From an uncultured Oscillospiraceae bacterium (GTDB lineage Bacteria > Bacillota > Clostridia > Christensenellales > CAG-138), in the NCBI GenBank assembly GCA_964573365.1, contig CAZNJN010000001.1, forward strand, positions 1-32,378: a DNA stretch of 32,378 nucleotides, written 5' to 3'. A program made the translations under genes and the position numbers. Shown here in pieces: positions 126 to 15,136 of the stretch. Within the stretch, counting starts at the first letter, position 1. Each line of letters begins with the position of its first letter. The notes below the pieces were generated by a model. It was not told where the DNA came from. It was given only the letters and a program-made list of their open reading frames with translations, and searched no databases.

Positions 126-146
126 AAAGCCCATGGTTAAGGCTTT
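126..146 (-). terminator. Candidate intrinsic terminator of the rnf-rseC operon
   Basis: AAAGCC/GGCTTT stem with a 9-nt loop. On the minus strand it is followed by ATTTATTTGTTTG, about 65 nt downstream of the rseC stop. Confidence 0.35.
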
Positions 147-211
147 TTGAAATTGTTTGCAGGAATTGTGTTATTTTGTGGCATGATCTTTGCCCGGCAC
201 TCCAGTCAAGC

Positions 212-637
212 TTATGATGACCCTTCTGCGTCTGAATCTTCTGCGATGCCTGTAATACGCGGCTTAAACTGTTTCATTTTTACAAAGCGTGGTTCAAATG
301 CTCGCAGAAGAAAAAAACTTGCCGCAGAAAGGAGAACACCGCCGACTGCCGCATAAATATCACCTAAGGGCGAAAAACAGAGTACGCCAAGCAGCAGCCC
401 CAGAAGCGGAACCCCATACATGATGAGGCTGGCTTTGAATACAGCGCTCTCATGCAGTTCTATCAATACCTTATCCCCTGTCTTTGCGCCGACTGTGTTT
501 TCGAGCATGATTTCCGCTTCATCTTCTCCGTCTTGAAAACATGCGTGGCACTCTCCACACATTTCGCTTCGGGCAAAACGTACCTTCGCCATACCGTTTT
601 GCGTCTGTGTAACGACGCCGCACTGACGTACACTCAT
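212..637 (-). CDS. rseC: RseC/MucC-family membrane protein (SoxR-reducing system component), last gene of the rnf operon
   Basis: N-terminal soluble part carries the Cys cluster C-G-E-C-H-A-C, followed by two hydrophobic helices. ATG at 637 overlaps the rnfB stop (ATGA at 634-637), so the ORF-track start at 697 is probably an over-extension. Confidence 0.75.
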   Translation of the reverse strand: MSVRQCGVVTQTQNGMAKVRFARSEMCGECHACFQDGEDEAEIMLENTVGAKTGDKVLIELHESAVFKASLIMYGVPLLGLLLGVLCFSPLGDIYAAVGGVLLSAASFFLLRAFEPRFVKMKQFKPRITGIAEDSDAEGSS

Positions 638-1431
638 TTCATATCCTTTTCTGTGACGATACACCAATTCGGACATACACTTGCGCAGATCAAACAACCG
701 TTACATTTTTCATCATCGATCACCGCATGCCCGTTTTCGATTCGGATCGCCTGCTCCGGACATTTTTTTACGCACGCGCCGCAGGCAATACATACCTTGA
801 TGCAGTTGTTGCGGGTTGTGCGACCCAAAACCCCATTGTTGCATTTCACATGCGCCTTAGAATCTGCACGGATCAAGTCAATAACCTTACGCGGACAGTA
901 TTGTACGCAAAGGCCGCAACCGACACAGCGAAAATCATCGACAATCGCAACGCCGTTTTTGATTTGTATCGCGTTAAAAGGACAAACCTTCACACAATCA
1001 CCCAGACCGATACAGGCATAGCAGCACATTTTTGGCCCTCCCGCCATGGAAGCGGCCGTAGCGCAGCTCTGATAGCCTTCATAGATATAACGCTCTCTGG
1101 TATTGCCTTCGTTCCCCTGACAGCGTACAAACGCTTTTTTCGGCGTTTCCGGTTCTACCTTCACGCCCATGGTTGCCGCGATCGCTTCCATATTCGCCGA
1201 GGGACATTTCGTAATCGGCGCTTTCCCCGAAAGAATCGCCTCTGCATATGCCGCGCATCCCGCATAGCCGCAGGCGCCGCAGTTTGCTCCGCCCAGCTCA
1301 CTGTTGAGTTTATCCCAACGTTCATCCGTGGGAACCGCAAGCTTTTTATCGGCGGCGGAAAGCACGATGCCAAAGATCAAGCCGATTGTGCCAAGCACAA
1401 GTACGGCGATAATAACATTTACCCAGTTCAT
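634..1431 (-). CDS. rnfB: Rnf electron transport complex subunit B (polyferredoxin)
   Basis: N-terminal TM helix, the GGANCGACGYAGC motif, and several CxxCxxCxxxCP 4Fe-4S ferredoxin motifs. It lies directly after rnfA. Confidence 0.92.
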   Translation of the reverse strand: MNWVNVIIAVLVLGTIGLIFGIVLSAADKKLAVPTDERWDKLNSELGGANCGACGYAGCAAYAEAILSGKAPITKCPSANMEAIAATMGVKVEPETPKKAFVRCQGNEGNTRERYIYEGYQSCATAASMAGGPKMCCYACIGLGDCVKVCPFNAIQIKNGVAIVDDFRCVGCGLCVQYCPRKVIDLIRADSKAHVKCNNGVLGRTTRNNCIKVCIACGACVKKCPEQAIRIENGHAVIDDEKCNGCLICASVCPNWCIVTEKDMK

Positions 1432-1434
1432 AAT

Positions 1435-2022
1435 TTATCCTCCCAAGCCCGAAAAGCCCATAAATGCCACGCTCATCAGTCCCGCAATAATCAGCGATAT
1501 GGGGAACCCTCGAAGCGGTTTGGGAATATCCGATACCTCCAGCCTTTCACGGACGCCCGCCATTAAAACAATCGCCAGTAAAAAGCCAAGCGCACCGAAT
1601 ACGCCGTTAAGCACGGAATAAAGAAGATTGTATTCATTATTCACATTAAGGATCGTTACACCCAGTACGGCGCAGTTTGTGGTGATGAGCGGCAGATAAA
1701 TTCCCAAGGACTTATAAAGCGACGGGCTGCTCTTTTTTATAAACATTTCGACAAGCTGTACAAGGCTTGCAATGACCAGAATGAAACTGACCGTGCTTAA
1801 AAACTCAAGCTTGAGCGGAATGAGGATCAGATGATAAACCAGCCATGTAAAAAGCGAGGCAAGTCCCATGACAAAGGTAACTGCCAAGCCCATGCCCGCC
1901 GCAGTCTCTATTTTTCCAGAAACGCCTAAAAAGGGGCAGCAGCCCAGAAAGCGCGAAAAGATAAAATTATGGCTGAGCACGCAACTGAGCATAAACAGCA
2001 GAACTTTCCAAATCTCGTTCAT
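1435..2022 (-). CDS. rnfA: Rnf complex subunit A
   Basis: 195-aa polytopic protein with RnfA/RsxA hallmarks ([36 protein letters not shown]). ATGA overlap with the rnfE stop. Confidence 0.93.
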
Positions 2023-2660
2023 AGTGACGCCTCCTCCTTTTCAAGCTTTCTTCTTTCCATCTTTGCACTGATCGCGTTTGCAATCCCCAATACGCTTCCG
2101 AAAACAATGAAGCCGCCGGGAGCCAATATCATCATCACCATGGGCTCATAAGCCGCGCCCATTACGTTGATGCCAAATATAGTGCCCGCGCCAATCACCT
2201 CTCGAATACAGCCGATCAGCGTTATGGCTAAGGTAAAGCCCAGACCCATACCCAGACCGTCTACCATCGAAAGGAAAACATTGTTTTTACTTGCGAATGC
2301 CTCCGCGCGCGCAAGAATAATGCAGTTGACCGCGATTAAGGGTATAAACATGCCTAAGCTTGTATATAGATCCGGCAAGTAAGCCTGCATGAGCATCTGC
2401 ACCATCGTCACAAAGGTGCAGATCACCACGATAAATACGGGTATGCGCACTTTTTGCGGCACAATATTTCGGAGCAGGGATATAACAGCGTTAGAACCGA
2501 TCAACACAAAGGTCGCTGCAAGTCCCATACCGATTCCGTTGAGGGCGCTGGTCGTTACGGCAATCGTGGGGCAGGTTCCCAGCACCAGACGAAACGTCGG
2601 GTTTTCCGTAAGTATGCCATTAAGAAAGACGCCGCCTACGCTTTTTTTCTTCTCGTTCAT
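2019..2660 (-). CDS. rnfE: Rnf complex subunit E
   Basis: 213-aa membrane protein with RnfE/RsxE hallmarks ([35 protein letters not shown]). ATGA overlap with the rnfD stop. Confidence 0.93.
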
Positions 2661-3592
2661 TTTACCTTTTCCGCCTTTCCGCCATACATCCTCACGCGCA
2701 CGTATTTATCGATCAGGGGCGTAGCAATGTTCATAAGCAGGATCGCATAGGTAACGCCCTCCGGATAAGTCCCGAAGGCGCGTATCAGCGCGACGATAAA
2801 CCCGCAGCCTGCGCCAAATATCATTTGTCCCCGCGCGGTCATGGGCGTCGTCGTATAGTCGGTCGCCATAAAGAACGCGCCGAAAAGCAAGCCGCCCGAG
2901 AGTAGACCCGTTATAGGAGCGCTGCCAAATATCCACGCAAAAAGCAGATATGCGGCAATAAAGCAGCATGGTATATAATAGCGTATCACGCCGCGCAGCA
3001 GCAGATACGCCGCACCCAAGAGAACCGCCGCCTTGCAGACCTCGCCGATACAGCCGGGAATGTCGCCGATAAACAGCTCAAGGAGCGTCGCGCTTCCGCC
3101 TTGAAGCGGCGTAGCAAACGAAATCGCGTCAGCGCTGTTGAAGATACGCGGATATACGAAGCTTGTCATGCGTACCGGCCAGCTCGTGAGCAAAATCGCG
3201 CGCGCGGCAAGCGCAGGATTCATAAAATTATGGCCTATACCACCAAATAGCTGTTTTACAATAATGATCGCGATCGCGCTTCCAATCATGCACATCCATG
3301 TCGGCGCCGTTGGCGGAAGATTCAGTCCAAGGATCAAGCCTGTTACAACGGCGGAAAGATCGCGTATACGCACCGGCTTTTGCGCAATCCTCTGAAAAAA
3401 GTATTCGCTGAGCACCGCAGCGGTCGTCGTGCTGATCAAAACGCGGGCAGCGTCTATGCCGAAGTAAACGATACCCACAATGACGCAGGGCAGCAAAGCG
3501 AGAATTACATCGAGCATAATGGTACGGGCGCTCTGCTTACAATGAATGTGCGGCGCAGTGGAAAGATGCAAAGTCATTTCTTGCTTATCCAT
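2657..3592 (-). CDS. rnfD: Rnf complex subunit D
   Basis: Polytopic NqrB/RnfD-like protein (HLSTAPHIH, FATPL, MATDYTTTP). The start is taken at ATG 3592, which overlaps the rnfC stop (TAATG). The 37 codons upstream in the ORF track lie inside rnfC. Confidence 0.9.
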   Translation of the reverse strand: MDKQEMTLHLSTAPHIHCKQSARTIMLDVILALLPCVIVGIVYFGIDAARVLISTTTAAVLSEYFFQRIAQKPVRIRDLSAVVTGLILGLNLPPTAPTWMCMIGSAIAIIIVKQLFGGIGHNFMNPALAARAILLTSWPVRMTSFVYPRIFNSADAISFATPLQGGSATLLELFIGDIPGCIGEVCKAAVLLGAAYLLLRGVIRYYIPCCFIAAYLLFAWIFGSAPITGLLSGGLLFGAFFMATDYTTTPMTARGQMIFGAGCGFIVALIRAFGTYPEGVTYAILLMNIATPLIDKYVRVRMYGGKAEKVK

Positions 3593-4929
3593 TACTTCTT
3601 CTCCTTTCCCTTCGCGGCAATGATTTGTCTTGCCGTGCGGAAAGACGTAGTCAGCCAGCGTCTGGAAGGACAAATATAGGCGCAGCAGCCGCACATGATG
3701 CACTCCATCACATGTAGCTTTTCCGCAGCTTCATAATCCTCATGGTCGCAGTAATACTTGATTAAAAACGGATCAAGCCCAATCGGGCAGACCTGCGCGC
3801 AGCGTGCGCAGCGTATACAAGGCTGCTCCTCGTTTGTCTGCGCTTCTTTTTTATTCATTACAAGAATGCCGCCACAGCCTTTGGTGATCGATACTTCATC
3901 ATCCGGCGCGCAAATGCCTGTCATGGCGCCGCCCGCTATGATTTTTCCCGGCTCCTGCGCATAGCCGCCGCAGCGCTCCACCACCTCATGGATCGTCGTG
4001 CCGATACGCACGCGAAGATTTTGTGGAAACCGCACACGCCCCGTTACCGTGGTGATGCGTTCGATCAGTGGCTTACCTAGCTGAACCGCATCCGAGATTG
4101 CAGCAGTCGTTGCGGCGTTAATTACAACCGTATTTACGTCAATCGGAAGCTTAAAGGGCGGCACTTCTTTTCCCGCGACCGCTTTGATGAGCTGTTTTTC
4201 ACTTCCCTGTGGATATTTTGTCGGCATTACAATGACAGAAACACCCTCGCGTCCCTTTACGCATTCCTGCAGAACGCGAATTGCCTGCGGCTTGTTGTCC
4301 TCAACAGCAATCACGCCCCGCTTTACGCGAAGCGCGCGCATAACAGCGCGTAAACCGTTGACAACTCTTTCAGGCGTTTCGAGCATCAGTCTATAGTCCG
4401 AGGTCAAGTGCGTTTCGCATTCGGCGCCGTTTACAATGATAAGGTCGCAACGCTTTCCCTCTGGAATGCTGAGTTTCACATGCGTCGGGAATGTCGCGCC
4501 GCCCATACCGCAGATGCCCGCGTTTCGTATCGCCGGTATCACCTCGTCCGGATCGACCTCCTCAACGTTCCCTAGCGGCGTGAGCGCCACCCACTCATCT
4601 TGAAAATCGTTCTCAATGGTAAGCGTCGGTACAGGCATACCGCCAAATTGTATTTTTGCGTCCGCCGCCGTAATCTTACCCGATACGCTCGCGTGGATCG
4701 GCAAACCGAGAGCGCCCTTAGGCGTGGCGATAAGCTGTCCCAGCTTTACCGTATCCCCAATCTGAACGCAGGGTTCGCTAGGCGCGCCGATATGCATCTG
4801 CATGGGAATGACGACCTTTTGGGGGATGTAGGATCGCACCGCCAGCTCCTGCGTAAAAATCTTGCCCTCGTGCGTGTCCCTTTCCTTCTGCATCGGAAAT
4901 ACGCCGCCTCGAAACGTATTCTTCATCAT
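3592..4929 (-). CDS. rnfC: Rnf complex subunit C (NADH-binding, 2x[4Fe-4S])
   Basis: 445 aa with GGVFP at the N-terminus, the nucleotide/FMN region GMGGATFPTHVKL, and two CxxCxxCxxxCP motifs near the C-terminus. Confidence 0.93.
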   Translation of the reverse strand: MMKNTFRGGVFPMQKERDTHEGKIFTQELAVRSYIPQKVVIPMQMHIGAPSEPCVQIGDTVKLGQLIATPKGALGLPIHASVSGKITAADAKIQFGGMPVPTLTIENDFQDEWVALTPLGNVEEVDPDEVIPAIRNAGICGMGGATFPTHVKLSIPEGKRCDLIIVNGAECETHLTSDYRLMLETPERVVNGLRAVMRALRVKRGVIAVEDNKPQAIRVLQECVKGREGVSVIVMPTKYPQGSEKQLIKAVAGKEVPPFKLPIDVNTVVINAATTAAISDAVQLGKPLIERITTVTGRVRFPQNLRVRIGTTIHEVVERCGGYAQEPGKIIAGGAMTGICAPDDEVSITKGCGGILVMNKKEAQTNEEQPCIRCARCAQVCPIGLDPFLIKYYCDHEDYEAAEKLHVMECIMCGCCAYICPSRRWLTTSFRTARQIIAAKGKEKK

Positions 4930-5474
4930 TGTGCCTCACCTCCAAGCAAGCGGACAAATTCCGCCGCCTCATTGACCGCCTTGACGACCGCGCCGGAGCT
5001 GATCGAAGCGCCGGTAACAGCGTCGATGTCCATTTTTAGCGTAAGGGGAGTCTTTTTCCCTGAAAACTGCGAAATGAACGCGGGCTGCTTTGTGTTGGCG
5101 CCCAGCCCCGCAGTCTCGGCAAATTTGCTGCCGCCTACCGTGATGCCGGTAATTTCGCCGTCCGTCTTGATGCCCGAGATCACCTCGATGGGTCCGCCAT
5201 AGCCCTGCTCGTTGACCGTGCACACATAGCCGATGATCGACGAGTCTTTCATAGCGGCATAGCATTCGTCGATGCCCTGCTCATCTCCATGCTCAAGCGT
5301 GACCACGGAAAATGAGTCCGCCTCCGAAAATACAGCATTTCTTGCCGCCTCTTTTTCTTCTAGGCTCCGCTGCATAATCATTTCAGCCGTCATTTCATTT
5401 GTCGCCCCCAAAAGGAAAGCCGCACTCATTGTGATGAGCCATAAAATCAGCCAAGCCGGTGGTTTGCGTTTCAT
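4926..5474 (-). CDS. rnfG: FMN-binding Rnf subunit G, encoded first in the operon
   Basis: N-terminal membrane anchor plus an FMN_bind-type domain ending in the flavinylation-type motif D-A-V-T-G-A-S-I-S. Its stop overlaps the rnfC ATG (ATGA). The start is chosen at ATG 5474 (SD GAAGGAA 4 nt upstream), because the ORF-track start at 5537 lies upstream of the promoter -10. Confidence 0.8.
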   Translation of the reverse strand: MKRKPPAWLILWLITMSAAFLLGATNEMTAEMIMQRSLEEKEAARNAVFSEADSFSVVTLEHGDEQGIDECYAAMKDSSIIGYVCTVNEQGYGGPIEVISGIKTDGEITGITVGGSKFAETAGLGANTKQPAFISQFSGKKTPLTLKMDIDAVTGASISSGAVVKAVNEAAEFVRLLGGEAQ

Positions 5475-5619: not shown

Positions 5620-8577
5620 TCATAGTTTTTTTACTGTTTGCATGATATATTGGTTCTTACCGGCCTCTTTTGCGCAGCGAAGCGCGTCCTCCGCCTTTGC
5701 GTATGCATTTGCGAGGCTGTCCTCCTCGCTCGCAATCATTGTGGCGCCGATGCTGCAGCTAAGCTTTCCATCGGCAGGCAGTGATATGCAGGCACAGAGA
5801 TTCAATATATTTGCGGCCAGCTCCGCCGTCTTTTCTTCGCTGTTAATGTTGGCGATAAAAGCTAAATAAGAATCTCCCTCGGCGCGTGCGACAACACCGT
5901 TTTCCCCTATCACATGCTGAATTCTCTGCGCGCATTCTTTAATAATCGCATCGCCGAATATATGTCCGCATTCTTCGTTAATAGCCCCGAGATTATCGAT
6001 ATCGATCAAAAACAAGGCTGCGGTATTCTCGTGTCTACGAAGCTTATTTTGAATGATATTCTCCGCGCTTGCTCTAGTGAGCAAGCCGCTAAGCGAATCG
6101 TATATCCTGCTTTCGTGATCTACGTCAAGCGGTTGGATCTCCTCATGGACGTCCGCCGCCTTGCCAAAGACGCGGTACACATTGCCCTCATGATCCGCAA
6201 GGCTTTTTACATGTGCGCGATACCACCTGTATGCATCACGATTTTCTCGTTTGACGCGAAGCAATACCTCGCCGTACTGTGGCGCCTTCAAATAGGCATA
6301 TAGCTGTCGCTCCACCGTTTCTCGCCCAGCATCATCCAAAAACGTGTATTTTTTAATATTTTGTGTATATTGATATAGTTTTTTTACATAGTGTTCGCCT
6401 TTTTCGTTCACAAAAAACATACGCATCACGTCGCTGACGACATCATAATCAAATGCGAACGTATCGCTTCCGCTGAGCAGCATTTCGTATATGTTTCGTT
6501 GTATCTCTCTTTCCCTTAACGCTTCCGCGTCCGGATGGCTCTGCGCGCCGTTTCCGTACATGCGGATGCTCTCGGCAAGATCGGCAATTTGCTCCTTAGC
6601 GTCCGCCAATTGAGCCTGTAACCTTTTCATTTCCGTAATATCGCGGTAGGTCACGCAAAATATGCCGTGATCCTTTGTACCACCCAAAAACGCAAAGCTG
6701 CAATCCAACCACATAAGATGACCATCCGCATGATAGTCTGTGATGACGGCTCTTTGCGTAATGCCCATATCGGCCGCCCGCATAAAGACGTTTTTCTCTT
6801 TTTCTTGTTCTTTTTTATCCATTTTTTCCCAGACGTTTTGAGAAAAATTCGCAAATGTATCCGGTGAATAACCGAATATTTCATAGTATCCTCGGCTGAC
6901 CCGGATCAACTCCAGACGGTCGCCCGAAAGCTCTAAAAGCGCGATCCCGCCATCAAAGGAATCCAAAATATCATTTACGACTCGGTTCCCGCCCAAATAG
7001 ATGTCGCTGTCAAAAGCCTTGTCCTCCACCGGCTTGAGCTCGCTGGGAATTTGTCTGTAGTTTGCCAGATAATCTTCAAACTGATCGTAGGGCATCGGCT
7101 TTGCAAAGTAATAGCCTTGTATCCAGTCACAGCCGATACTATGCAAGAACGAAATCTGTTCGCTTGTCTCCACGCCCTCCGCGATAACGGGTATGCTGAG
7201 CCAACGCGCCATGCGAAGGACAGCGGCAATAATGCTGCCAGCTCTTGTCGATTTTTCAAAGCCTTCCAAAAATTTCATGTCGATCTTCAAAATATCAACC
7301 GGCAATTCCTTGAGCATGTTTAAGGAAGAATAGCCGCTGCCAAAGTCATCCATCATAATCGTGAAGCCATGCGCCCGCAAAATCTGCACCGTATGTGACA
7401 TTTGCTCAATATTGTCGATATACGCAGATTCCGTTACCTCAAGCTTCAAAAGCGAAGGGTCGATAGAGTATTTGTCCACGAGCGCGATGATCTCATCCGC
7501 GACGCCCGCGTTGTATATGCTCTTTCGGGATAGGTTGACCGAAAAAGGAATCTCCCTTTTCCCTTGATCCATGCGTTCACGCAAAAGTCTGCACGTTTCT
7601 TCCCAGACATAGTGATCCAGCTTTTCGATAAACCCATTCTTTTCAAATACAGGAATAAACGCTCCCGGCGTTATAAGTCCACGTTGGGGATGCTGCCAGC
7701 GTACCAAAACTTCGGCACTTTGTGGCTCTCCGTTTGACAGGCTGTGAACCGGCTGTAAAAATAAGACGAATTGCTTTTCTGTGATTGCGTTTTCCATTTC
7801 CGCGGCAATTTGTATCTCGTAGGCGATGGTATTGCGCAGCTTTTCATCATAAAACGCATAATGCGAATAAGGGTCGGCCTTGGCTACCGCCAGCGCCATA
7901 TTTGCCTTTTCGCACATCTGCTCAATCGGCATATCGGCATCGTCATTTTCATAAATTCCATACTTAAGTGACACCCGAAAGTCGATCCCGTATTCCGCCA
8001 AGTTTGTCGTCGCCATCAAGCGATCTGCGACTTGCTTTGTCATTTTTCCGGGTATACAAATCACAAATTTGTCATTTTCAAAGCGAGCGCACAAACCTCC
8101 AAGCTCTTTTTCCGCATTTTTCAAATACTTACTTAGCAGTATCAAAACACGGTCGCCTACATCGTTGCCGAGCAAGCCGTTCACCATCCGAAAACGGCAA
8201 ATATCGCAATACAAAAGCGTGTAGGCTTCCGCGCTTCTTTTGGCAAAATACTCGGTCGCTTTGATCGAAAAGCCAGTTTTGTTGTAAAGACCGGTCAATG
8301 CATCATGCTCGAAGCGGTAACGCATTTGATCCTGTATAATCTTTTCTCTTTCTTTTCGCTGTTTTTCTTCCGTAATATCAAAAATCGCGATCAAAACGGC
8401 GTTTTCCTGTCGTTCGCCGATCGTCATGCTCTTGAACGTGGCGTGAATCCATAATACATGCCGGGTCAAACTCAAAAGCTCAAATTCCCTGTTGATTTCA
8501 TTTTTGCAGGCCAGCGAAGCATCTATGAGCGCCTGCCGCACCTCATCTCTGTATACTTCAAAAACCAAGCTGATCAA
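5620..8577 (-). CDS. c-di-GMP signalling protein: partial PAS, degenerate GGDEF, EAL, PAS, PAS-like, degenerate GGDEF
   Basis: - First GGDEF fold has R-F-E-N-D at the signature position (8071-8085).
- EAL domain has E-V-T (7432-7440), DDFGSGYSS, KIDMKF, EGVET and QGYYFAKP.
- C-terminal GGDEF fold has E-G-D-S-Y (5866-5880).
- The callable start is TTG at 8577, but the frame stays open to 8832 without any ATG/GTG/TTG and encodes the missing N-terminal half of the first PAS domain. Confidence 0.85.
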   Translation of the reverse strand: MISLVFEVYRDEVRQALIDASLACKNEINREFELLSLTRHVLWIHATFKSMTIGERQENAVLIAIFDITEEKQRKEREKIIQDQMRYRFEHDALTGLYNKTGFSIKATEYFAKRSAEAYTLLYCDICRFRMVNGLLGNDVGDRVLILLSKYLKNAEKELGGLCARFENDKFVICIPGKMTKQVADRLMATTNLAEYGIDFRVSLKYGIYENDDADMPIEQMCEKANMALAVAKADPYSHYAFYDEKLRNTIAYEIQIAAEMENAITEKQFVLFLQPVHSLSNGEPQSAEVLVRWQHPQRGLITPGAFIPVFEKNGFIEKLDHYVWEETCRLLRERMDQGKREIPFSVNLSRKSIYNAGVADEIIALVDKYSIDPSLLKLEVTESAYIDNIEQMSHTVQILRAHGFTIMMDDFGSGYSSLNMLKELPVDILKIDMKFLEGFEKSTRAGSIIAAVLRMARWLSIPVIAEGVETSEQISFLHSIGCDWIQGYYFAKPMPYDQFEDYLANYRQIPSELKPVEDKAFDSDIYLGGNRVVNDILDSFDGGIALLELSGDRLELIRVSRGYYEIFGYSPDTFANFSQNVWEKMDKKEQEKEKNVFMRAADMGITQRAVITDYHADGHLMWLDCSFAFLGGTKDHGIFCVTYRDITEMKRLQAQLADAKEQIADLAESIRMYGNGAQSHPDAEALREREIQRNIYEMLLSGSDTFAFDYDVVSDVMRMFFVNEKGEHYVKKLYQYTQNIKKYTFLDDAGRETVERQLYAYLKAPQYGEVLLRVKRENRDAYRWYRAHVKSLADHEGNVYRVFGKAADVHEEIQPLDVDHESRIYDSLSGLLTRASAENIIQNKLRRHENTAALFLIDIDNLGAINEECGHIFGDAIIKECAQRIQHVIGENGVVARAEGDSYLAFIANINSEEKTAELAANILNLCACISLPADGKLSCSIGATMIASEEDSLANAYAKAEDALRCAKEAGKNQYIMQTVKKL

Positions 8578-8698
8578 AGGAGTTTCTTTGATTACACCAT
8601 TTTGAGAAAAGCCAAGTATTGCATTGTATTTTTCGTTTTTATAGTAGTAAGCGCCGCAATCGCCTACATCGCAAACGGCGACGCCATAGGGAAGAAGC

Positions 8699-9073
8699 TC
8701 AAGCGCGGAAAAGTCGGCGTTTTTGATAGAAATTTTTTCGTTTTTCCCAATAGCCTCGTCCTTTTCTTTCGTTTGAGTTTCTCGCGGAAATGAGGGAAAG
8801 CGCCAAGCGGAAACGCATTCCCGTGATAACGATTACGGGAATGCGTTTCAGCTTGGCGCTTTCCCTCATTTCCGCGAGAAACTCAAAGCCATTTTTCTTT
8901 GGCATGTTGAGATCGAGTAAGACCAGATCAATCGACTCTGCAAGCTCCTGCAGCGCGTCCATCGCCTGCTGCCCATCCAAATAAGCAAGCAAATCAAATT
9001 CCTCGCCAAGAATCTTGTCGAGGAGCATTTGATTCAACTTTTCATCTTCCGCAATGAGCAGCTTTTTTTTCAA
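8699..9073 (-). CDS. Response-regulator receiver (REC) domain fragment, truncated after beta4 by the palindrome
   Basis: KKLLIAEDE..., the phospho-acceptor context LVLLDLNMP, and RIPVIV are present. After that the sequence is the inverted copy and then junk, ending at the stop at 8699. The likely start is TTG 9073 (SD AAGGTGG 5 nt upstream); the ORF-track start is GTG 9082. An A8 homopolymer lies at 9063-9070. Confidence 0.7.
   Translation of the reverse strand: MKKKLLIAEDEKLNQMLLDKILGEEFDLLAYLDGQQAMDALQELAESIDLVLLDLNMPKKNGFEFLAEMRESAKLKRIPVIVITGMRFRLALSLISARNSNERKGRGYWEKRKNFYQKRRLFRA
8772..8887. repeat. 116-bp near-perfect palindrome (inverted duplication) inside coding sequence
   Basis: 8772-8827 is the reverse complement of 8832-8887. 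The arms are 56 nt with a 4-nt spacer (8828-8831), and the only mismatches are at 8809/8850 and 8825/8834. Confidence 0.95.
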
Positions 9074-9110
9074 ACATGCCACCTTATTTCTGCTTTGAAA
9101 GGCAATTTGC

Positions 9111-10760
9111 TTATTTTATTAGATCAACAAACTCATATGCAGGCAGCGGCTTGGAAAAATAGTAGCCCTGCCCTTCTTTGCAGCCGATGCTCTTAAGGTA
9201 CTGGTAATCGTCCTCCGTTTCCACACCCTCGGCAATAACCTTTAGACCCATGTCCTTCGCCAATTCTACAATGAATTTGATAATGCTCTTGTTGCCCTTC
9301 ACAAATAGATTGTTTTCCAGCGAACGCATGTCGAGCTTTAATTCGTCTACCGGAACTTTGCTGAGCATATTGAGAGAAGAATACCCAAGCCCGAAATTGT
9401 CGATAGCGATCACAAAGCCGGAATCGCGCAGCTTTTTAATGGCGTCAAGCATGACTTTGGGATTTTGCGTATATACGGTTTCCGTTAGCTCCAGATGCAG
9501 ATAATCGGTGGAAAGACCGTGTTTTTTCACAATGCCGGTCAGCAGCTCGGGTAAATTCGGATTATAAAGATCAACCCAAGAAATATTGACGGAAATCGGC
9601 ATGATCTTAATGCCGCGTTCACGCCAGCCCTTCAAATCGGCGCATACGAGATCGCAAATTTCCGCATCCATTTTCGCAATAAAGCCGTTGCGTTCAAAAA
9701 TGGGCAGGTAACTTCTGGGAGGCATAACTCCGCGTTCGGGGTGTATCCACCGGACAAGAGCCTCCGCTTCTATGATCTTACCCGTCGTCAAATTATATTT
9801 AGGCTGATAATACGCGTGAAACTGTCCGCTTTCAAGCGCACTCTTCATCTCATAGGTAATCTGTTTTTCTTCCATCACCCTCTGATAGAATTCTTCATCA
9901 TAGTACACAACGGTATTGTCTCGTTGCTCTTTTGCATGGTCGAGCGCAGTCTGCGTCATTTCGCACATTTCGGAAACGGTATAAAGTCCTTTATCGACTT
10001 TATAAACTCCATAGAACGAAGAAAGGTTGAAGTCGAGCGGATAATGCGCCAAACCTTCGTCAAGGACACGCACAAGTTCTTTTTCATCACCCTCTTCATC
10101 CACGGGGCAAAGCATGATAAGCCGCGCTTTGTCTGTTCTTCCCGCAATGCCGCCGGTTCTCCTAAGCGCTTTTTGGATCAATCTTGAGAGGAAAATCATA
10201 AGCTGATTTCCTTCCTCAATGCCAAACATATCTCCGATTAGGTTGAAATGCTCGATCTCCATTGCCACAAGGTAGAAAAACGGATGTTCGTCGCTCTCGA
10301 TCAGTTTTGCGACGCGGCTGATGAAGGCATCCTCTGTATAAAGTCCGGTGACGCTGTCTTTTTCGACCTTCGCTATAAATGCGGCGGCTTCGCGAAGCCC
10401 GATGAGGTTATGAAGGCGATGCTTAATTATCTCAGGATTATACGGCTTTGAAAGATAGTCTGATGCACCCAAGGCCAGCGTAACCGGTCCTGACTCCGTA
10501 TCGTCTTGCTGCGTTGTGACAATTACAGGAATCGAACAAAGCTTTTGATCCGCCCGAACCGCGCGCAGCACTTCATAGCCGTCCATTTCCGGCATAAGAA
10601 GATCCAGGAGCATAGCCGATATCTCATCGGACTGCAGCTTGAGTATTTTCATGGCCTCGCGCCCATTTTCGGCTTCGATGATCTCGTACTCATTGCACAA
10701 TACGGCATTGAGAATCTTTCGGTTTATGCTGTTATCATCCGCGATGATTATTTTTCGCAT
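9111..10760 (-). CDS. Response regulator with REC, degenerate GGDEF and EAL domains (putative phosphorylation-controlled c-di-GMP phosphodiesterase)
   Basis: - REC: IIIADD, LLDLLMPEMDG, SDYLSKP.
- GGDEF fold has R-T-D-K-A at the signature position (10125-10139).
- EAL: ELTET, IDNFGLGYSS, KLDMRS, EGVET, QGYYFSKP.
- ATG 10760 is preceded by GGAGGATGAAGGA. The ORF-track start at 10775 is TTG. Confidence 0.88.
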   Translation of the reverse strand: MRKIIIADDNSINRKILNAVLCNEYEIIEAENGREAMKILKLQSDEISAMLLDLLMPEMDGYEVLRAVRADQKLCSIPVIVTTQQDDTESGPVTLALGASDYLSKPYNPEIIKHRLHNLIGLREAAAFIAKVEKDSVTGLYTEDAFISRVAKLIESDEHPFFYLVAMEIEHFNLIGDMFGIEEGNQLMIFLSRLIQKALRRTGGIAGRTDKARLIMLCPVDEEGDEKELVRVLDEGLAHYPLDFNLSSFYGVYKVDKGLYTVSEMCEMTQTALDHAKEQRDNTVVYYDEEFYQRVMEEKQITYEMKSALESGQFHAYYQPKYNLTTGKIIEAEALVRWIHPERGVMPPRSYLPIFERNGFIAKMDAEICDLVCADLKGWRERGIKIMPISVNISWVDLYNPNLPELLTGIVKKHGLSTDYLHLELTETVYTQNPKVMLDAIKKLRDSGFVIAIDNFGLGYSSLNMLSKVPVDELKLDMRSLENNLFVKGNKSIIKFIVELAKDMGLKVIAEGVETEDDYQYLKSIGCKEGQGYYFSKPLPAYEFVDLIK

Positions 10761-10949: not shown

Positions 10950-13900
10950 TCATTCCTTCCTGTCGCTTTGTAGCTTTTGCAGAACCTCCCTTATTTTTTC
11001 AATATCAATCGGCTTTGTGACATACGCGTTCATTCCGTAGCTGAACGCTTTCTTATGATCCTCCGGAAATGCGTTAGCAGTCATCTCGATGATCGGAATA
11101 ACCGCGGCTCTGGGATGCTTAGATTCTCTAATCGCGGTAGCGGCTTCATAGCCGTTCATAATCGGCATTTGAATATCCATAAAGATAGCCGTATATTCGT
11201 TTTCCGCGCTGGCTTTGAATTTTTCCAGAGCCTCCGCGCCGTCTTTTGCAAGCGTCACCTTGGCTCCCTGTTTTTCCAGGAGTCTCATAATGATCATTTG
11301 GTTAATCACATGATCTTCAGCCACCAAAATGTGCTTTCCAGTAAAATCATATTCTTTCGTTTCCTGATTTTTTGCCTTTTCCTTACTCAAGCTGCCGCCG
11401 GGCGCTTCTTCGTCAATTTTTTCCGGCATATCCACAATAAAGGAGGAGCCTTTCCCAAGCTCGCTTTCCAATCGTATTGTGCCGCCGCGCGCTTCCACTA
11501 TGCTCTTGACAATCGCCAGTCCCAGTCCTGTCCCTTCCGCCATCTTCTCTCCATTCTTGTCTCTTTCAAAAACCTCAAAAACGGCGTTCTGTTTTTCTTT
11601 TGCGATGCCGATACCTGTGTCCTGCACGACAATGCGAAGCTGGATCATTCCGGGATCGGGCGTGCGCATTTGCGAAATCGTCATCGTAATTGTACCCCCC
11701 TCGGGTGTGTATTTGTTCGCGTTACTTAAAAGGTTGATAATGATACGGCGGAATCTGATCTCGTCTTCAATAATGTTGTTGAAGATGTGTCTTTCCCACA
11801 CGATGGAAAACTTTTGTTTTTTCTGTGCGAAAAGCTGCCGCGTCATTCCCTCTATGGTTTTGATCTGCTCCTGCAAGTCGATTTTTTCATCCGCGAAAAC
11901 CATTTTTCCGCTCTCGATCTTGCTCATGTCCAAAATATCATCGATCAATGAAAGCAAATGCTTGGACGAGCGCCGAATAATGTCCAGTCCTTCTTTTACC
12001 TTCTGCTCATCGCCGGCCTCATCCTCTAAAAGCTTCACCATTCCAATGATCCCGTTCATCGGAGTGCGTATGTCATGGCTCATATTCGCCAAAAAACGGC
12101 TTTTCGCGTGCGTCGCCTGCTGTGCGTTTTCAAGCGCAATGTGTAATTGTTCGCTTTGCTGCTCCTGCTCGCGCAACACTTCCGTTACATCCACGACCGT
12201 GAGTAGTGCCGTTGAAGTAGATGCGTCATAATCGGCAAAGCGTAGGTTTTTGGCCTTTAACGCTTCCTCCTCCGCTTGTACATGCAAGAGGATCTCATAG
12301 ACGCCCTTTTCCTCCAGTGCCGCTACGACCCGTTCCGCTTGCATATTCTGCAAAAAAGCGTCCTTTTCTCCTTGCCGCGCACAGGCTTGAGCATAATAGC
12401 GGCAAAGAGCGGCATAGGAATTCTCCTTTGAGTCAAAATCAAAGCGTTCCGTATTGCCTGCGAATATCTTGATTCTGCCGGTCTTGAGATTGAGGTGTCC
12501 CAGCATATCATAATCGCAGGAAACCGCCGCGCTGACCACCTGCTCCGTAATTTTTTGCTCTGTAATATCCGTTACATATATAAACGCAATAACGTCCTTT
12601 GATCCCGGGGGCTTCATGAATTTTATCGCCAGATGCGTCCACAGTTCTTCTCCGTTTCCCCGTAAGAAGCACAGATCCGTATACGGGTCCTTCCGGCTGC
12701 GGTAAGCATATGCGAGCGGCTTTTGTTTAAGCATCATGCGAAGCGCATCCCTTTGCTTTTCATTGGGTATATTGGCGCATAGGCTCTCCGTAACGCTCTG
12801 TATAGTTCTTACGTTTTGATCTTCTTCGGGTTCGGGAAAAATGCTTTGCTGATAATCCAAAAGCTGCATTTTTGAAACGTTGATCGACGCATAGGCGATT
12901 AAATCTTTAATCAGGCTGCCCTTTCGCTGCACTTCTCTTTCATAGCGTTCCTGCGCGATACGGCTATCATTGATGTCGCGGATGCTTCCCCACGCAACGC
13001 TCGGTTCACCGTTTGCATCCTTGAAGACCGTATAGGCGATGCGCATCCATCCACCGCCTTTTCCATCGACGTTGACGCGTCTGAAATCGCCGGTGACTTC
13101 ATTTTCTCCGCTATGAACCCTATCGTAGATTTTTTGGAAAGCTTCGATATCGTCCTTGAAAATATAGCCCTTTTCCACCAAAATATCGCGCGGATTTGAA
13201 ACCATAACGCCCATTGCTGGCAGAATTTTTCTGTTCTCATCCTGTATCAGCATCCGGTTTTTAATATCATATATCCACACATTGATATTCATTTGCTGCG
13301 TAGCGACCAGAAATCTGGATTCCAGCTTTTTGTAATCCTCAATCGGCACGGCGGAGCAAACATATTTTTTCGCTATACCGTCGCGCCCATAGAGAGCGCG
13401 GAAGCAAAGGCGATACCACTTATATTGCTTCTTCACGCGGATCAACGCGTCAAAGGTAACAGAAGGGACGCCGCTTCGCATTGCGTCAATCGCTTCTTCA
13501 CATTTTTGATCCGCTTCCTTTTCAAATATACCCGTTGCAAACCAGCAGGCAGGCCAATTATACACTTCCTCTGCGCAATCGCAGTTTATTCTGCATAGCT
13601 CCGCCGCGACGATACGATTGTCAGACGGATAATAATCCCATATCATCATGCTTGCGCCCTCGACCGCAAACACAAGTCGCTGTTCATTTTCCCAAAAAAT
13701 TTCCTTTTGGCGCATTTGTTCGTTGATATCCGTGTAGGTATTATACAAAACAAGCCGGCCTTGTTCATTTTCGTATACCGAGGCGTTTACGCCGCACCAG
13801 ATATAGTTGTTTTTCTCGTTTCCGGATATCCGGTACGCGGCCTTAAAGCCCTTTCTATTTTCAAGTGCGTCGGCGTAGCACTTTCGCACGGCTTCCAAAT

Positions 13901-15065
13901 CATCAGGATGCACGCCCGCCTCAACACCGCTTTTTCTCATAAATTCCTCGCGTCGAGTCTCGTCGATTTGCAGCATACGGCAAAAGCCATCGCTTAAAAA
14001 CTTCGTCTGCAGCTTGCCTTCTTCGTTCTGCTCCAGCACCAAAAAGCCGCCTTCGATGCTGCGAAGCATCGTATCGGCTTTAATCTCCGCTTCTTTTCGC
14101 TGTTGTATGTCCGTAAAGACGCCGATAAGAATATGGCAATCCTCATTACGCTCGGCGACGGACGCATTCAGATTGAGCCAATGATAACCGCCCGTTTTAT
14201 TTGCGATACGCAAATCGTAATTGATATTGCCAAGTTCTTTACTGCAACGTGCAATTTCTTCAAGAAATCTCTCCCGCTCATCAATATGAATCATCGCAAG
14301 GAGCTTATCCTTTGCGTTGCCGTAAAGCTCGGCGCCGCTATAATCCAGCGTACTGCTTACCTTTTCGGATAAGTATATTTTCCTAACGCCTTGTTCCCGT
14401 TCGTATTCAATCACCATAAAGCCGGTTGGAAAGGACTCGTAGATATTCAGGAGGGTGTTTTTTTGGTTTTCCTGTTCGCGCAGCGTATCAATGTAGCCGT
14501 TTTGCACATTTTTGCCAATAAAAAACGCGCATACAGATAAGAGGATGACGGAAGCATGGTAATAAAGATCCGCGCTGCCTATAAACGCTGCCATTTCGTT
14601 AAAAAGCAGACAAACGGAAAACATACAAGTAATCTCTTTTTTATCAAAGATCGGAATGATAACCATAAGGCTGCACAGCATCAGGCAGTTCATGGGCTGC
14701 TCATAGCTTGCAATGTCGTTTAGCATAAAAGGAAAAAGTCCCACCATGAGCATAACCCAAAACGACAAATAAAGCAGCTTGGTTCCGCTGACGCCTCGCT
14801 TCTTGTTGATCTGAATGCCGATAATGTATGTAATAGACGCAGCCACTATAATGCAGGCGCCTAAGGTGGTATACCAATGCCGCCAGCACTTTGGGTCAAG
14901 AAGATTCAGCAGCATAAAAAGGAGCGTCGCCCATGCGATGATCCTAATTCGATCTACGTTGGTCTGTGTCAGGTATTTTTCAAGCAGATCTTCATTGTTG
15001 TTACCCTCTATGCGTAAAATCGCATCGACTGCCAAGGAACTATGATGGTTCTTTCTTTCCGGCAT
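10950..15065 (-). CDS. Hybrid sensor histidine kinase: N-terminal multi-TM region, about five PAS-like modules, HisKA, HATPase_c and a C-terminal REC
   Basis: - H-box SHDIRTPMNG, with the His codon at 12075-12077.
- N box NLLSNANKYT, G1 DTGIGI, G2 GTGLGLAI.
- C-terminal receiver FMDIQMP, with the Asp codon at 11175-11177, and YVTKP.
- ATG 15065 has GGAG at 7-nt spacing. An alternative ATG at 15095 has a weaker SD. Confidence 0.9.
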   Translation of the reverse strand: MPERKNHHSSLAVDAILRIEGNNNEDLLEKYLTQTNVDRIRIIAWATLLFMLLNLLDPKCWRHWYTTLGACIIVAASITYIIGIQINKKRGVSGTKLLYLSFWVMLMVGLFPFMLNDIASYEQPMNCLMLCSLMVIIPIFDKKEITCMFSVCLLFNEMAAFIGSADLYYHASVILLSVCAFFIGKNVQNGYIDTLREQENQKNTLLNIYESFPTGFMVIEYEREQGVRKIYLSEKVSSTLDYSGAELYGNAKDKLLAMIHIDERERFLEEIARCSKELGNINYDLRIANKTGGYHWLNLNASVAERNEDCHILIGVFTDIQQRKEAEIKADTMLRSIEGGFLVLEQNEEGKLQTKFLSDGFCRMLQIDETRREEFMRKSGVEAGVHPDDLEAVRKCYADALENRKGFKAAYRISGNEKNNYIWCGVNASVYENEQGRLVLYNTYTDINEQMRQKEIFWENEQRLVFAVEGASMMIWDYYPSDNRIVAAELCRINCDCAEEVYNWPACWFATGIFEKEADQKCEEAIDAMRSGVPSVTFDALIRVKKQYKWYRLCFRALYGRDGIAKKYVCSAVPIEDYKKLESRFLVATQQMNINVWIYDIKNRMLIQDENRKILPAMGVMVSNPRDILVEKGYIFKDDIEAFQKIYDRVHSGENEVTGDFRRVNVDGKGGGWMRIAYTVFKDANGEPSVAWGSIRDINDSRIAQERYEREVQRKGSLIKDLIAYASINVSKMQLLDYQQSIFPEPEEDQNVRTIQSVTESLCANIPNEKQRDALRMMLKQKPLAYAYRSRKDPYTDLCFLRGNGEELWTHLAIKFMKPPGSKDVIAFIYVTDITEQKITEQVVSAAVSCDYDMLGHLNLKTGRIKIFAGNTERFDFDSKENSYAALCRYYAQACARQGEKDAFLQNMQAERVVAALEEKGVYEILLHVQAEEEALKAKNLRFADYDASTSTALLTVVDVTEVLREQEQQSEQLHIALENAQQATHAKSRFLANMSHDIRTPMNGIIGMVKLLEDEAGDEQKVKEGLDIIRRSSKHLLSLIDDILDMSKIESGKMVFADEKIDLQEQIKTIEGMTRQLFAQKKQKFSIVWERHIFNNIIEDEIRFRRIIINLLSNANKYTPEGGTITMTISQMRTPDPGMIQLRIVVQDTGIGIAKEKQNAVFEVFERDKNGEKMAEGTGLGLAIVKSIVEARGGTIRLESELGKGSSFIVDMPEKIDEEAPGGSLSKEKAKNQETKEYDFTGKHILVAEDHVINQMIIMRLLEKQGAKVTLAKDGAEALEKFKASAENEYTAIFMDIQMPIMNGYEAATAIRESKHPRAAVIPIIEMTANAFPEDHKKAFSYGMNAYVTKPIDIEKIREVLQKLQSDRKE

Positions 15066-15136
15066 GATCCTTCTCCCCGCGATAGTTGGTTTCATTATGC
15101 ATTTTATTTTCCGCTTCTTGGGTCTGCGCCTTCAAA

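Follow-up and report, generated by a model that had tools for sequence, protein, structure and literature searches.

A near-perfect palindrome interrupts a signalling gene in the window (the whole 32,378-nt stretch of DNA analysed here, which is a complete NCBI contig). This palindrome is probably the scar of a single template-switch mutation and probably represents a real in vivo allele, most likely the majority one in the sampled population. Alignment with strains that retain the intact gene allows the ancestral sequence, both junctions of the lesion, the deleted part and the copied part to be established at the level of sequence. The event adds one more case to a mutation class already described, in which template switching or fold-back gives an inverted duplication with a deletion, and does not constitute a new kind of biological system.

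The palindrome and its intact sister alleles

The palindrome spans 116 bp, and a repeat search as well as direct comparison of its arms reproduced the arms, spacer and two mismatches given in the earlier note. Complementarity extends over 54 of 56 positions, with mismatches at 8809/8850 and 8825/8834, and the longest perfect stretch within the arms is 37 nt. The arms are separated by a spacer of 4 nt (8828-8831, AACG on the plus strand). Such a repeat has a chance expectation of about 1.8e-24 in 32 kb. When the entire contig was scanned, no second inverted repeat of at least 22 nt within 300 nt was found, and a check of the contig ends found no foldbacks. As single-stranded DNA the palindrome is predicted to form one hairpin of −68.9 kcal/mol (z = −17.9 versus shuffles).

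Proteins identical to those of the window were found by exact-sequence look-up on Logan and ENA contigs of other samples. A comparison set was formed from contigs carrying the RnfE-like protein of the window, retrieved with 10-kb flanks, and two of these, independently assembled and from the same species as the window, span the palindrome site. One (L052) is a 23.7-kb contig from the Logan assembly of ERR13731080, and the other (L053) is a scaffold from an ENA sewage metagenome. Structural differences aside, L052 is 99.94% identical to the window, with seven substitutions and no small indels across 12.4 kb, and L053 is about 98% identical. Sequence from a further run, SRR8925824, shows 100% identity over 1.5 kb.

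The palindrome is absent from both of these strains. In its place each has a single called gene of 1173 amino acids with hits to Response_reg, PAS, GGDEF, EAL and GGDEF, and the domain order of the intact gene is REC-PAS-GGDEF-EAL-PAS-GGDEF. Its receiver covers Response_reg profile positions 2-110 of 111 (Pfam), reads ...IPVIVITGYDDFQTKESALEQGAWDVIHKPLEAETIRERVNSALKKTKEKDEAIG... and contains ...VIHKPL..., so that the question raised in the earlier note, whether an intact REC C-terminus exists at related loci, is answered in the affirmative. The continuous native sequence across the site contains ...ATCACGGGCTACGACGAC....

As judged from these alignments, the intact allele is ancestral and the window carries the derived lesion, because a complete receiver is encoded only by the intact allele and this allele is found in both the 99.94% and the 98% identical strain. 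The same two observations rule out the palindrome allele as the ancestral state. As expected for a template-switch mutation, the change is confined to one lineage, and sister alleles lack the inverted copy.

Table 1. Positions of the palindrome, the lesion and the surrounding genes in the window
Feature	Position	Strand	Description	Basis
Palindrome, left arm	8772-8827		pairs with 8832-8887, 56 nt each	repeat search and own comparison
Palindrome, right arm	8832..8887	−	native REC coding sequence FEFLAEMRESAKLKRIPVI, alpha3-beta4; template of the inverted copy	100% identical to L052 3706-3761
Quasi-palindrome CCCGTAAT-CGTT-ATCACGGG	8820..8839	−	codons P-V-I-V-I-T-G; junction 1, foldback point	unchanged in L052 and L053
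Templated inverted insertion, 45 nt	8775..8819	−	reverse complement of adjoining upstream native sequence (L052 about 3709-3753)	BLAST
Junction 2	8772..8774	−	3-nt microhomology AAA (coding strand), common to the end of the copy and native resumption at L052 3887	
Copied base unlike template	8809		the only such base; G on plus strand, T expected	template base in both L052 and L053
Truncated receiver ORF, 124 aa	8699..9073	−	TTG start behind AAGGTGG; REC beta1-beta4 plus 39 junk residues	Pfam
Remainder of former gene	5620..8774	−	linker, PAS, degenerate GGDEF, EAL, PAS, degenerate GGDEF; other frame	Pfam (EAL 1.8e-70, GGDEF, PAS_3)
REC-GGDEF-EAL response regulator	9111-10760	−	immediately upstream of the broken gene	Pfam
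Hybrid PAS-HisKA-HATPase-REC kinase	10950-15095	−	upstream; intact 1381-aa ORF in the window	Pfam

The junctions were read base by base against L052 on the coding strand, which is the minus strand of the window. Native sequence is matched without mismatch from 9200 to 8820 (L052 3773), where it ends in ...AAACGCATTCCCGTAATCGTTATCACGGG, and restarts at 8774 (L052 3887) with AAACGAAAGAAAAGG..., remaining collinear for a further 8.6 kb. The flanks of the lesion are 100% identical to L052 over 381 nt and 275 nt. Missing between them are 113 nt (L052 3774-3886), corresponding to 38 codons (YDDFQTKESALEQGAWDVIHKPLEAETIRERVNSALKK) that encode alpha4-beta5-alpha5 including the conserved Lys-Pro; the loss had been guessed earlier at about 40 amino acids. 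The palindrome allele can be recognized by the junction k-mers CACGGGAATGCGTTTCC and GAAACTCAAACGAAAGAAAAGG.

What now stands at the site is an inverted copy of adjoining sequence. A minus-strand BLAST match of 53 nt with one mismatch pairs window 8772-8824 with L052 3758-3706 (52/53), and this orientation of the copy is not present in L052 or L053. The template lies 0-60 nt upstream on the same molecule, as expected of a template-switch mutation. The right arm was correctly described in the earlier note as native REC sequence. Its description of the left arm as an inverted copy holds for 8772-8819, but the innermost 8 nt (8820-8827) are native according to the L052 comparison. The net change at the lesion is −68 nt with a frameshift, which explains the difference in frame between the two halves of the gene.

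Junction 1 coincides with a natural quasi-palindrome with arms of 8+8 nt, which on its own folds weakly into a 5-bp hairpin. The mismatch 8825/8834 lies inside this native element and is present in the intact alleles. It is thus ancestral and provides no evidence of age, and the suggestion that the two arm mismatches favour a somewhat aged event largely falls, leaving only 8809. At the divergence between the window and L052, the probability of at least one neutral substitution in 48 nt is about 0.027, and later drift is an unlikely explanation for the 8809 mismatch. A cross-strain template or chimera is not indicated, as the template base is present at this position in both L052 and L053. More generally, mismatches between arms need not date a palindrome, as one of the two here is ancestral.

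In the four-switch-point model of template-switch mutation, a hairpin stem can arise in one event (PMC8794818), and quasipalindromes in E. coli are hotspots of template switching in which the nascent strand serves as template (PMC7202029). The lesion has two junctions, one of departure and one of return, and four switch points on one molecule, located at L052 positions 3773 (point 1), 3753 (point 2), 3706-3709 (point 3) and 3887-3890 (point 4). Point 2 lies 5′ of point 1, as an intrastrand switch requires (cf. PMC8794818). Departure followed by return is what characterizes a template-switch mutation. The proposal in the earlier note of a foldback or template-switch inverted duplication plus deletion is supported by the comparison with L052 and L053, which reveals the 113-nt deletion, the 45-nt inverted templated insertion and the change of frame.

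A plausible course of events begins with coding-strand synthesis, during which the 3′ end ...ATCACGGG would depart from its template and snap back to pair with CCCGT(A)AT within the strand being made. The snap-back site would be the natural quasi-palindrome with its 4-nt loop. Extension by 45-48 nt with the nascent strand as template would then generate the left arm, and the AAA microhomology could let the strand rejoin its original template 113 nt downstream. A mirror-image route would yield an identical product: synthesis of the other strand would jump to the complementary strand at AAA/TTT and return at the quasi-palindrome. In net terms the gene is 68 nt shorter and frameshifted. Its REC has lost alpha4-beta5-alpha5 together with the conserved Lys, leaving a stub of 124 aa and, downstream, a PAS-GGDEF-EAL-GGDEF frame without a start.

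Repair of a double-strand break offers a different path to the same structure, although we judge it improbable. A resected 3′ end would snap back on the quasi-palindrome, prime limited synthesis and be joined to the other end through the AAA microhomology created by that synthesis (snap-back synthesis-dependent microhomology-mediated end joining, SD-MMEJ), with the 113 nt lost to resection. The snap-back SD-MMEJ model predicts a deletion together with an inverted templated insert from the immediate flank and microhomologies of 3-8 nt (PMC2943611, PMC5728401), and a bacterial enzyme with SD-MMEJ-like activity has been reported (bioRxiv 10.1101/2022.03.14.484287). However, the pathway is known mainly from eukaryotes, and it would leave the same sequence as a replicative template switch, such that the two cannot be told apart from sequence. 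Also, templated inserts made by SD-MMEJ are usually shorter than 45 nt, which counts against this pathway here.

The broken gene and its neighbourhood

Translation of the stub gives MKKKLLIAEDE...KLKRIPVIVITG, which is sensible up to that point and is followed by junk to the stop at 8699. The stub corresponds to Response_reg (PF00072) profile positions 2-78 of 111 in Pfam. Together, translation and profile confirm the observation in the earlier note that the receiver breaks off after IPVIV. The acidic pocket (AEDE), the phospho-acceptor Asp (LLDLNMP) and the Thr (VIVITG) can all be read from the translation, but alpha4-beta5-alpha5 and the Lys of the KP motif are missing, and the stub thus falls short of a complete (beta-alpha)5 receiver fold. 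The start of this ORF is ambiguous: GTG at 9082 gives 127 amino acids, and TTG at 9073 gives 124 (MKKKLLIAEDE, 5 nt after AAGGTGG). The public gene call starts at TTG 9073, and a run of eight A residues lies directly 3′ of the start codon.

Past the left arm a different frame resumes, again as first noted from the sequence, with linker and PAS sequence from about 8778 downwards. This second frame is open from about 8832 to 5620, and the remainder of the former gene is 99.94% identical to L052 3887-7041. No ATG, GTG or TTG occurs in the downstream frame before 8577. The first start is a TTG at 8577, which is located within the first PAS region and lacks a Shine-Dalgarno-like sequence. The sequence of the downstream output module is intact, but the module is out of frame and without a start codon. 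We therefore read the REC-PAS-GGDEF-EAL-PAS-GGDEF gene as a pseudogene in the strain represented by the window. For annotation this carries a warning, in that a 124-aa “response regulator” and a start-less PAS-GGDEF-EAL ORF would together make up a single pseudogene.

The two GGDEF domains carry degenerate signatures, FENDKF and EGDSY; at the second site, two of the orthologs described below have GGDEF (L002) and GGDAF (L004). The EAL motif AEVLVRW retains the ExLxR pattern. Given the degenerate GGDEF signatures and the retained EAL motif, the intact protein is probably a c-di-GMP phosphodiesterase controlled by phosphorylation of its REC domain, which on motifs only is likelier than a cyclase.

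The broken gene, the REC-GGDEF-EAL regulator and the hybrid kinase are adjacent, and from this adjacency we infer that they probably form one phosphorelay and c-di-GMP signalling output cluster. The gene order of the cluster is kept in L052 and in L060 (Logan contig from ERR13731080). Immediately downstream of the signalling cluster is a complete Rnf-type operon (window 130-5474, minus strand) comprising RnfC, D, G/FMN_bind, E, A and B plus an RseC_MucC-like gene. This operon is conserved in L052-L055 and is also present beside the ortholog in L004.

A GTDB scan for orthologs yielded nothing above 63% identity. The closest species-level relative, at that value, is L004 (CAYPAH010000026.1), whose contig ends 208 nt upstream of the match. 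In L004 1-60 the contig end lies four codons upstream of the junction-2 equivalent with the frame still open (ALQKKKEHDIAIE...), and this ortholog is probably REC-fused but cut off by the contig end. That the contig breaks in or near the REC-coding part is probably a coincidence.

More distant orthologs of the output module from the same scan (L001-L003), with about 45% identity, have no REC at all. Their loci, of PAS-GGDEF-EAL-PAS-GGDEF architecture, are L002 3987-8949, L003 3862-8949 and L001 1-3323. These orthologs begin a few residues after the junction-2 equivalent, and about 40 nt separate their start from the stop codon of the REC-GGDEF-EAL gene next to them. The existence of REC-less orthologs indicates that the REC fusion is variable in the PAS-GGDEF-EAL-PAS-GGDEF family; in the window, REC is broken and not cleanly lost.

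The hairpin itself might be thought to serve as a terminator or attenuator, as a protein-binding palindrome, or as a phase-variation switch uncoupling REC from the output domains. Its fold is very stable, and a REC-less enzyme is viable in principle, given that the REC-less protein of L001-L003 starts near the point where native sequence resumes. Nevertheless, we regard a functional role as very improbable. The arms are coding sequence and its copy, and the structure is not conserved, being missing from strains with 98-99.9% identity. Beyond it lies CGAAAGAAAAGG, and the hairpin has no U-tract on its 3′ side, which together with its coding origin and its absence from sister strains eliminates an intrinsic terminator or regulatory hairpin. 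An invertible switch is likewise rejected, as the 4-nt spacer leaves nothing to invert and the alleles differ by replacement and deletion rather than by inversion; no recombinase was seen among the scanned neighbour genes. Moreover, a REC-less product would require a start codon for the downstream module, and none occurs before 8577, inside the PAS region. The hairpin is without a function of its own.

Other lesions were observed in the same cluster. L060 lacks 806 nt of the hybrid kinase (window 12909-13714), with the junction at L060 2499-2500. The deletion is out of frame, has 2 nt of microhomology, and splits the L060 kinase into calls of 452 and 639 amino acids. It represents a second, independent disruptive lesion in the cluster, in the very strain whose REC-PAS gene is intact. 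L061, a Logan contig from SRR11845630 that is 99.93% identical, has a 1-nt deletion in a run of four A residues (GAAATGAAAAGG to GAAATGAAAGG; window about 6627, L061 about 1094) that splits the REC-PAS-GGDEF-EAL-GGDEF gene into 400-aa and 313-aa calls. Either a genuine frameshift allele or an error due to low coverage would account for it.

Taken together, the palindrome, the 806-nt deletion and the −1 frameshift might represent several independent recent loss-of-function lesions in one c-di-GMP phosphorelay cluster among wild strains of one uncultured Oscillospiraceae-like species. Such a series would imply that the habitat repeatedly favours loss of the pathway or that selection against such loss is relaxed there, with the window providing the one-step birth of a 56-bp hairpin whose ancestor is available at 99.94% identity. 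We offer this broader scenario as a speculation with little likelihood of being correct.

A real allele or an artefact

The main competing explanation, already named as an alternative in the earlier note, is that the palindrome arose in vitro or during assembly. A chimera produced by phi29 MDA or library preparation, through hairpin snap-back at the quasi-palindrome and fill-in, would have entered the consensus, and the gene of the organism would be intact. Known artefact reads turn at natural near-palindromes and append the adjacent reverse complement, sometimes with misincorporated bases (PMC10908179), and inverted chimeras from MDA join nearby segments through short overlaps (PMC9984789). 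Considered alone, junction 1 looks exactly like such library-preparation or MDA foldbacks at natural palindromic sequences (PMC10908179, PMC9984789), and the inverted repeat at which the turn occurs, CCCGTAAT-CGTT-ATCACGGG, is present in the intact alleles. The 124-aa product of the palindrome allele is recorded from this contig alone, and in both of the other assemblies spanning the site, L052 and L053, the gene is intact. Also, clean copying would leave no mismatch at 8809, and the one present there fits a low-coverage or in vitro error better (drift P about 0.03).

Despite these points, we consider an artefact unlikely, if a good deal less so than the other alternatives discussed. Foldback artefacts contain a single junction, beyond which they stay on the opposite strand, whereas here there are two junctions, and the native strand is regained after 45-48 nt and continues collinearly for 8.6 kb. 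The homology at junction 2 is only 3 nt, from which a de Bruijn or overlap assembler cannot create a junction and which gives no support to PCR (mis)priming. The contig is free of Ns and has no similar structure elsewhere in its 32 kb or at its ends, and its consensus quality is good, with no small indels relative to L052 across the 12.4 kb compared.

Read depth provides a further argument against an artefact. By a Lander-Waterman estimate that assumes short reads, a contig of 32 kb without gaps is reached only at a depth of about 10x or higher, and the probability that the native 113-nt branch would then lack supporting reads is about 0.001. If coverage is at least 10x, this value implies that the palindrome path is the majority in the reads, again assuming short reads.

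Purely computational sources of the structure were examined separately. A k-mer assembly loop is ruled out, because the perfect stretch is 37 nt, the arms differ and the homology at junction 2 is 3 nt. A scaffold-gap join is ruled out because the contig has no Ns and no scaffold gaps. There may be an ascertainment effect, in that a palindrome whose perfect stretch (37 nt) is shorter than the largest k of the assembler can be assembled through and a perfect one could not. From this limit we infer that a mismatch-bearing palindrome is likelier to appear inside a contig.

Several searches for further copies of the locus gave null results. Exact look-ups of the 127-aa ORF, the 985-aa ORF, the 1381-aa kinase and the 549-aa neighbour returned no record, owing to start-codon choice or strain SNPs. 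A homology search with a REC+PAS composite found relatives of at most 35% identity, along with a few REC-only matches of up to 51% over 21% of the query, and the intact protein of the species itself is apparently not in that homology database. An exact 23-mer from the arm had 0 hits in JGI metagenomes, and the REC-PAS protein retrieved only distant REC homologs from the same metagenomes.

If the template-switch allele is real, it is an unusually clean natural case of a long template switch in a bacterium, with an ancestor known to the base and both junctions resolved. The pre-existing 8-nt quasi-palindrome would be identifiable as the nucleation site, and one event would have made a 56-bp hairpin stem, deleted 113 nt and killed a gene. 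Should it prove an artefact, it would serve as a useful case of a double-junction chimera persisting into a deposited MAG.

Comparison with known template-switch and foldback events

Foldback reads from library preparation or MDA (PMC10908179, PMC9984789) share with the window a turn at a near-palindrome and the appended reverse complement of adjacent sequence. However, these foldbacks are single-junction, low-frequency products at read ends, whereas the structure in the window has a second junction and lies inside a gapless 32-kb consensus.

FoSTeS/MMBIR and snap-back SD-MMEJ (PMC2943611, PMC5728401) resemble the lesion in placing an inverted duplication beside a deletion, with 3-8 nt of microhomology and a short spacer at the turn. 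The scale and the organisms differ. FoSTeS/MMBIR events often reach kilobases to megabases, SD-MMEJ inserts few to tens of nucleotides at induced breaks, and both have been described mainly in eukaryotes, whereas the present structure is 116 bp long and bacterial.

Quasipalindrome-associated mutation in E. coli (Ripley 1982 model; thyA/lacZ QP reporters, PMC7202029) shares several features with the lesion: an imperfect inverted repeat nucleates the event, the nascent strand is the template and the host is a bacterium. In classical events of this kind only a few bases are changed and the quasi-palindrome is perfected. Here, in contrast, the 8825/8834 mismatch remains uncorrected, copying has continued far beyond the 8+8-nt element so that the new complementarity lies outside it, and the return is displaced, with 113 nt deleted.

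The window has most in common with template-switch mutations (Loytynoja & Goldman 2017; Monttinen & Loytynoja 2022, PMC8794818), in which a nearby reverse complement replaces a short stretch of sequence in one event. In these mutations, as in our reading of the palindrome, replication proceeds briefly along the nascent or complementary strand and then returns, a long perfect hairpin stem arises de novo, and the ancestor is available for comparison. The published cases consulted are mostly short clusters and RNA stems. Compared with these, the copy in the window is long (45-48 nt), the return is made 113 nt downstream, sequence is deleted and the gene is destroyed.
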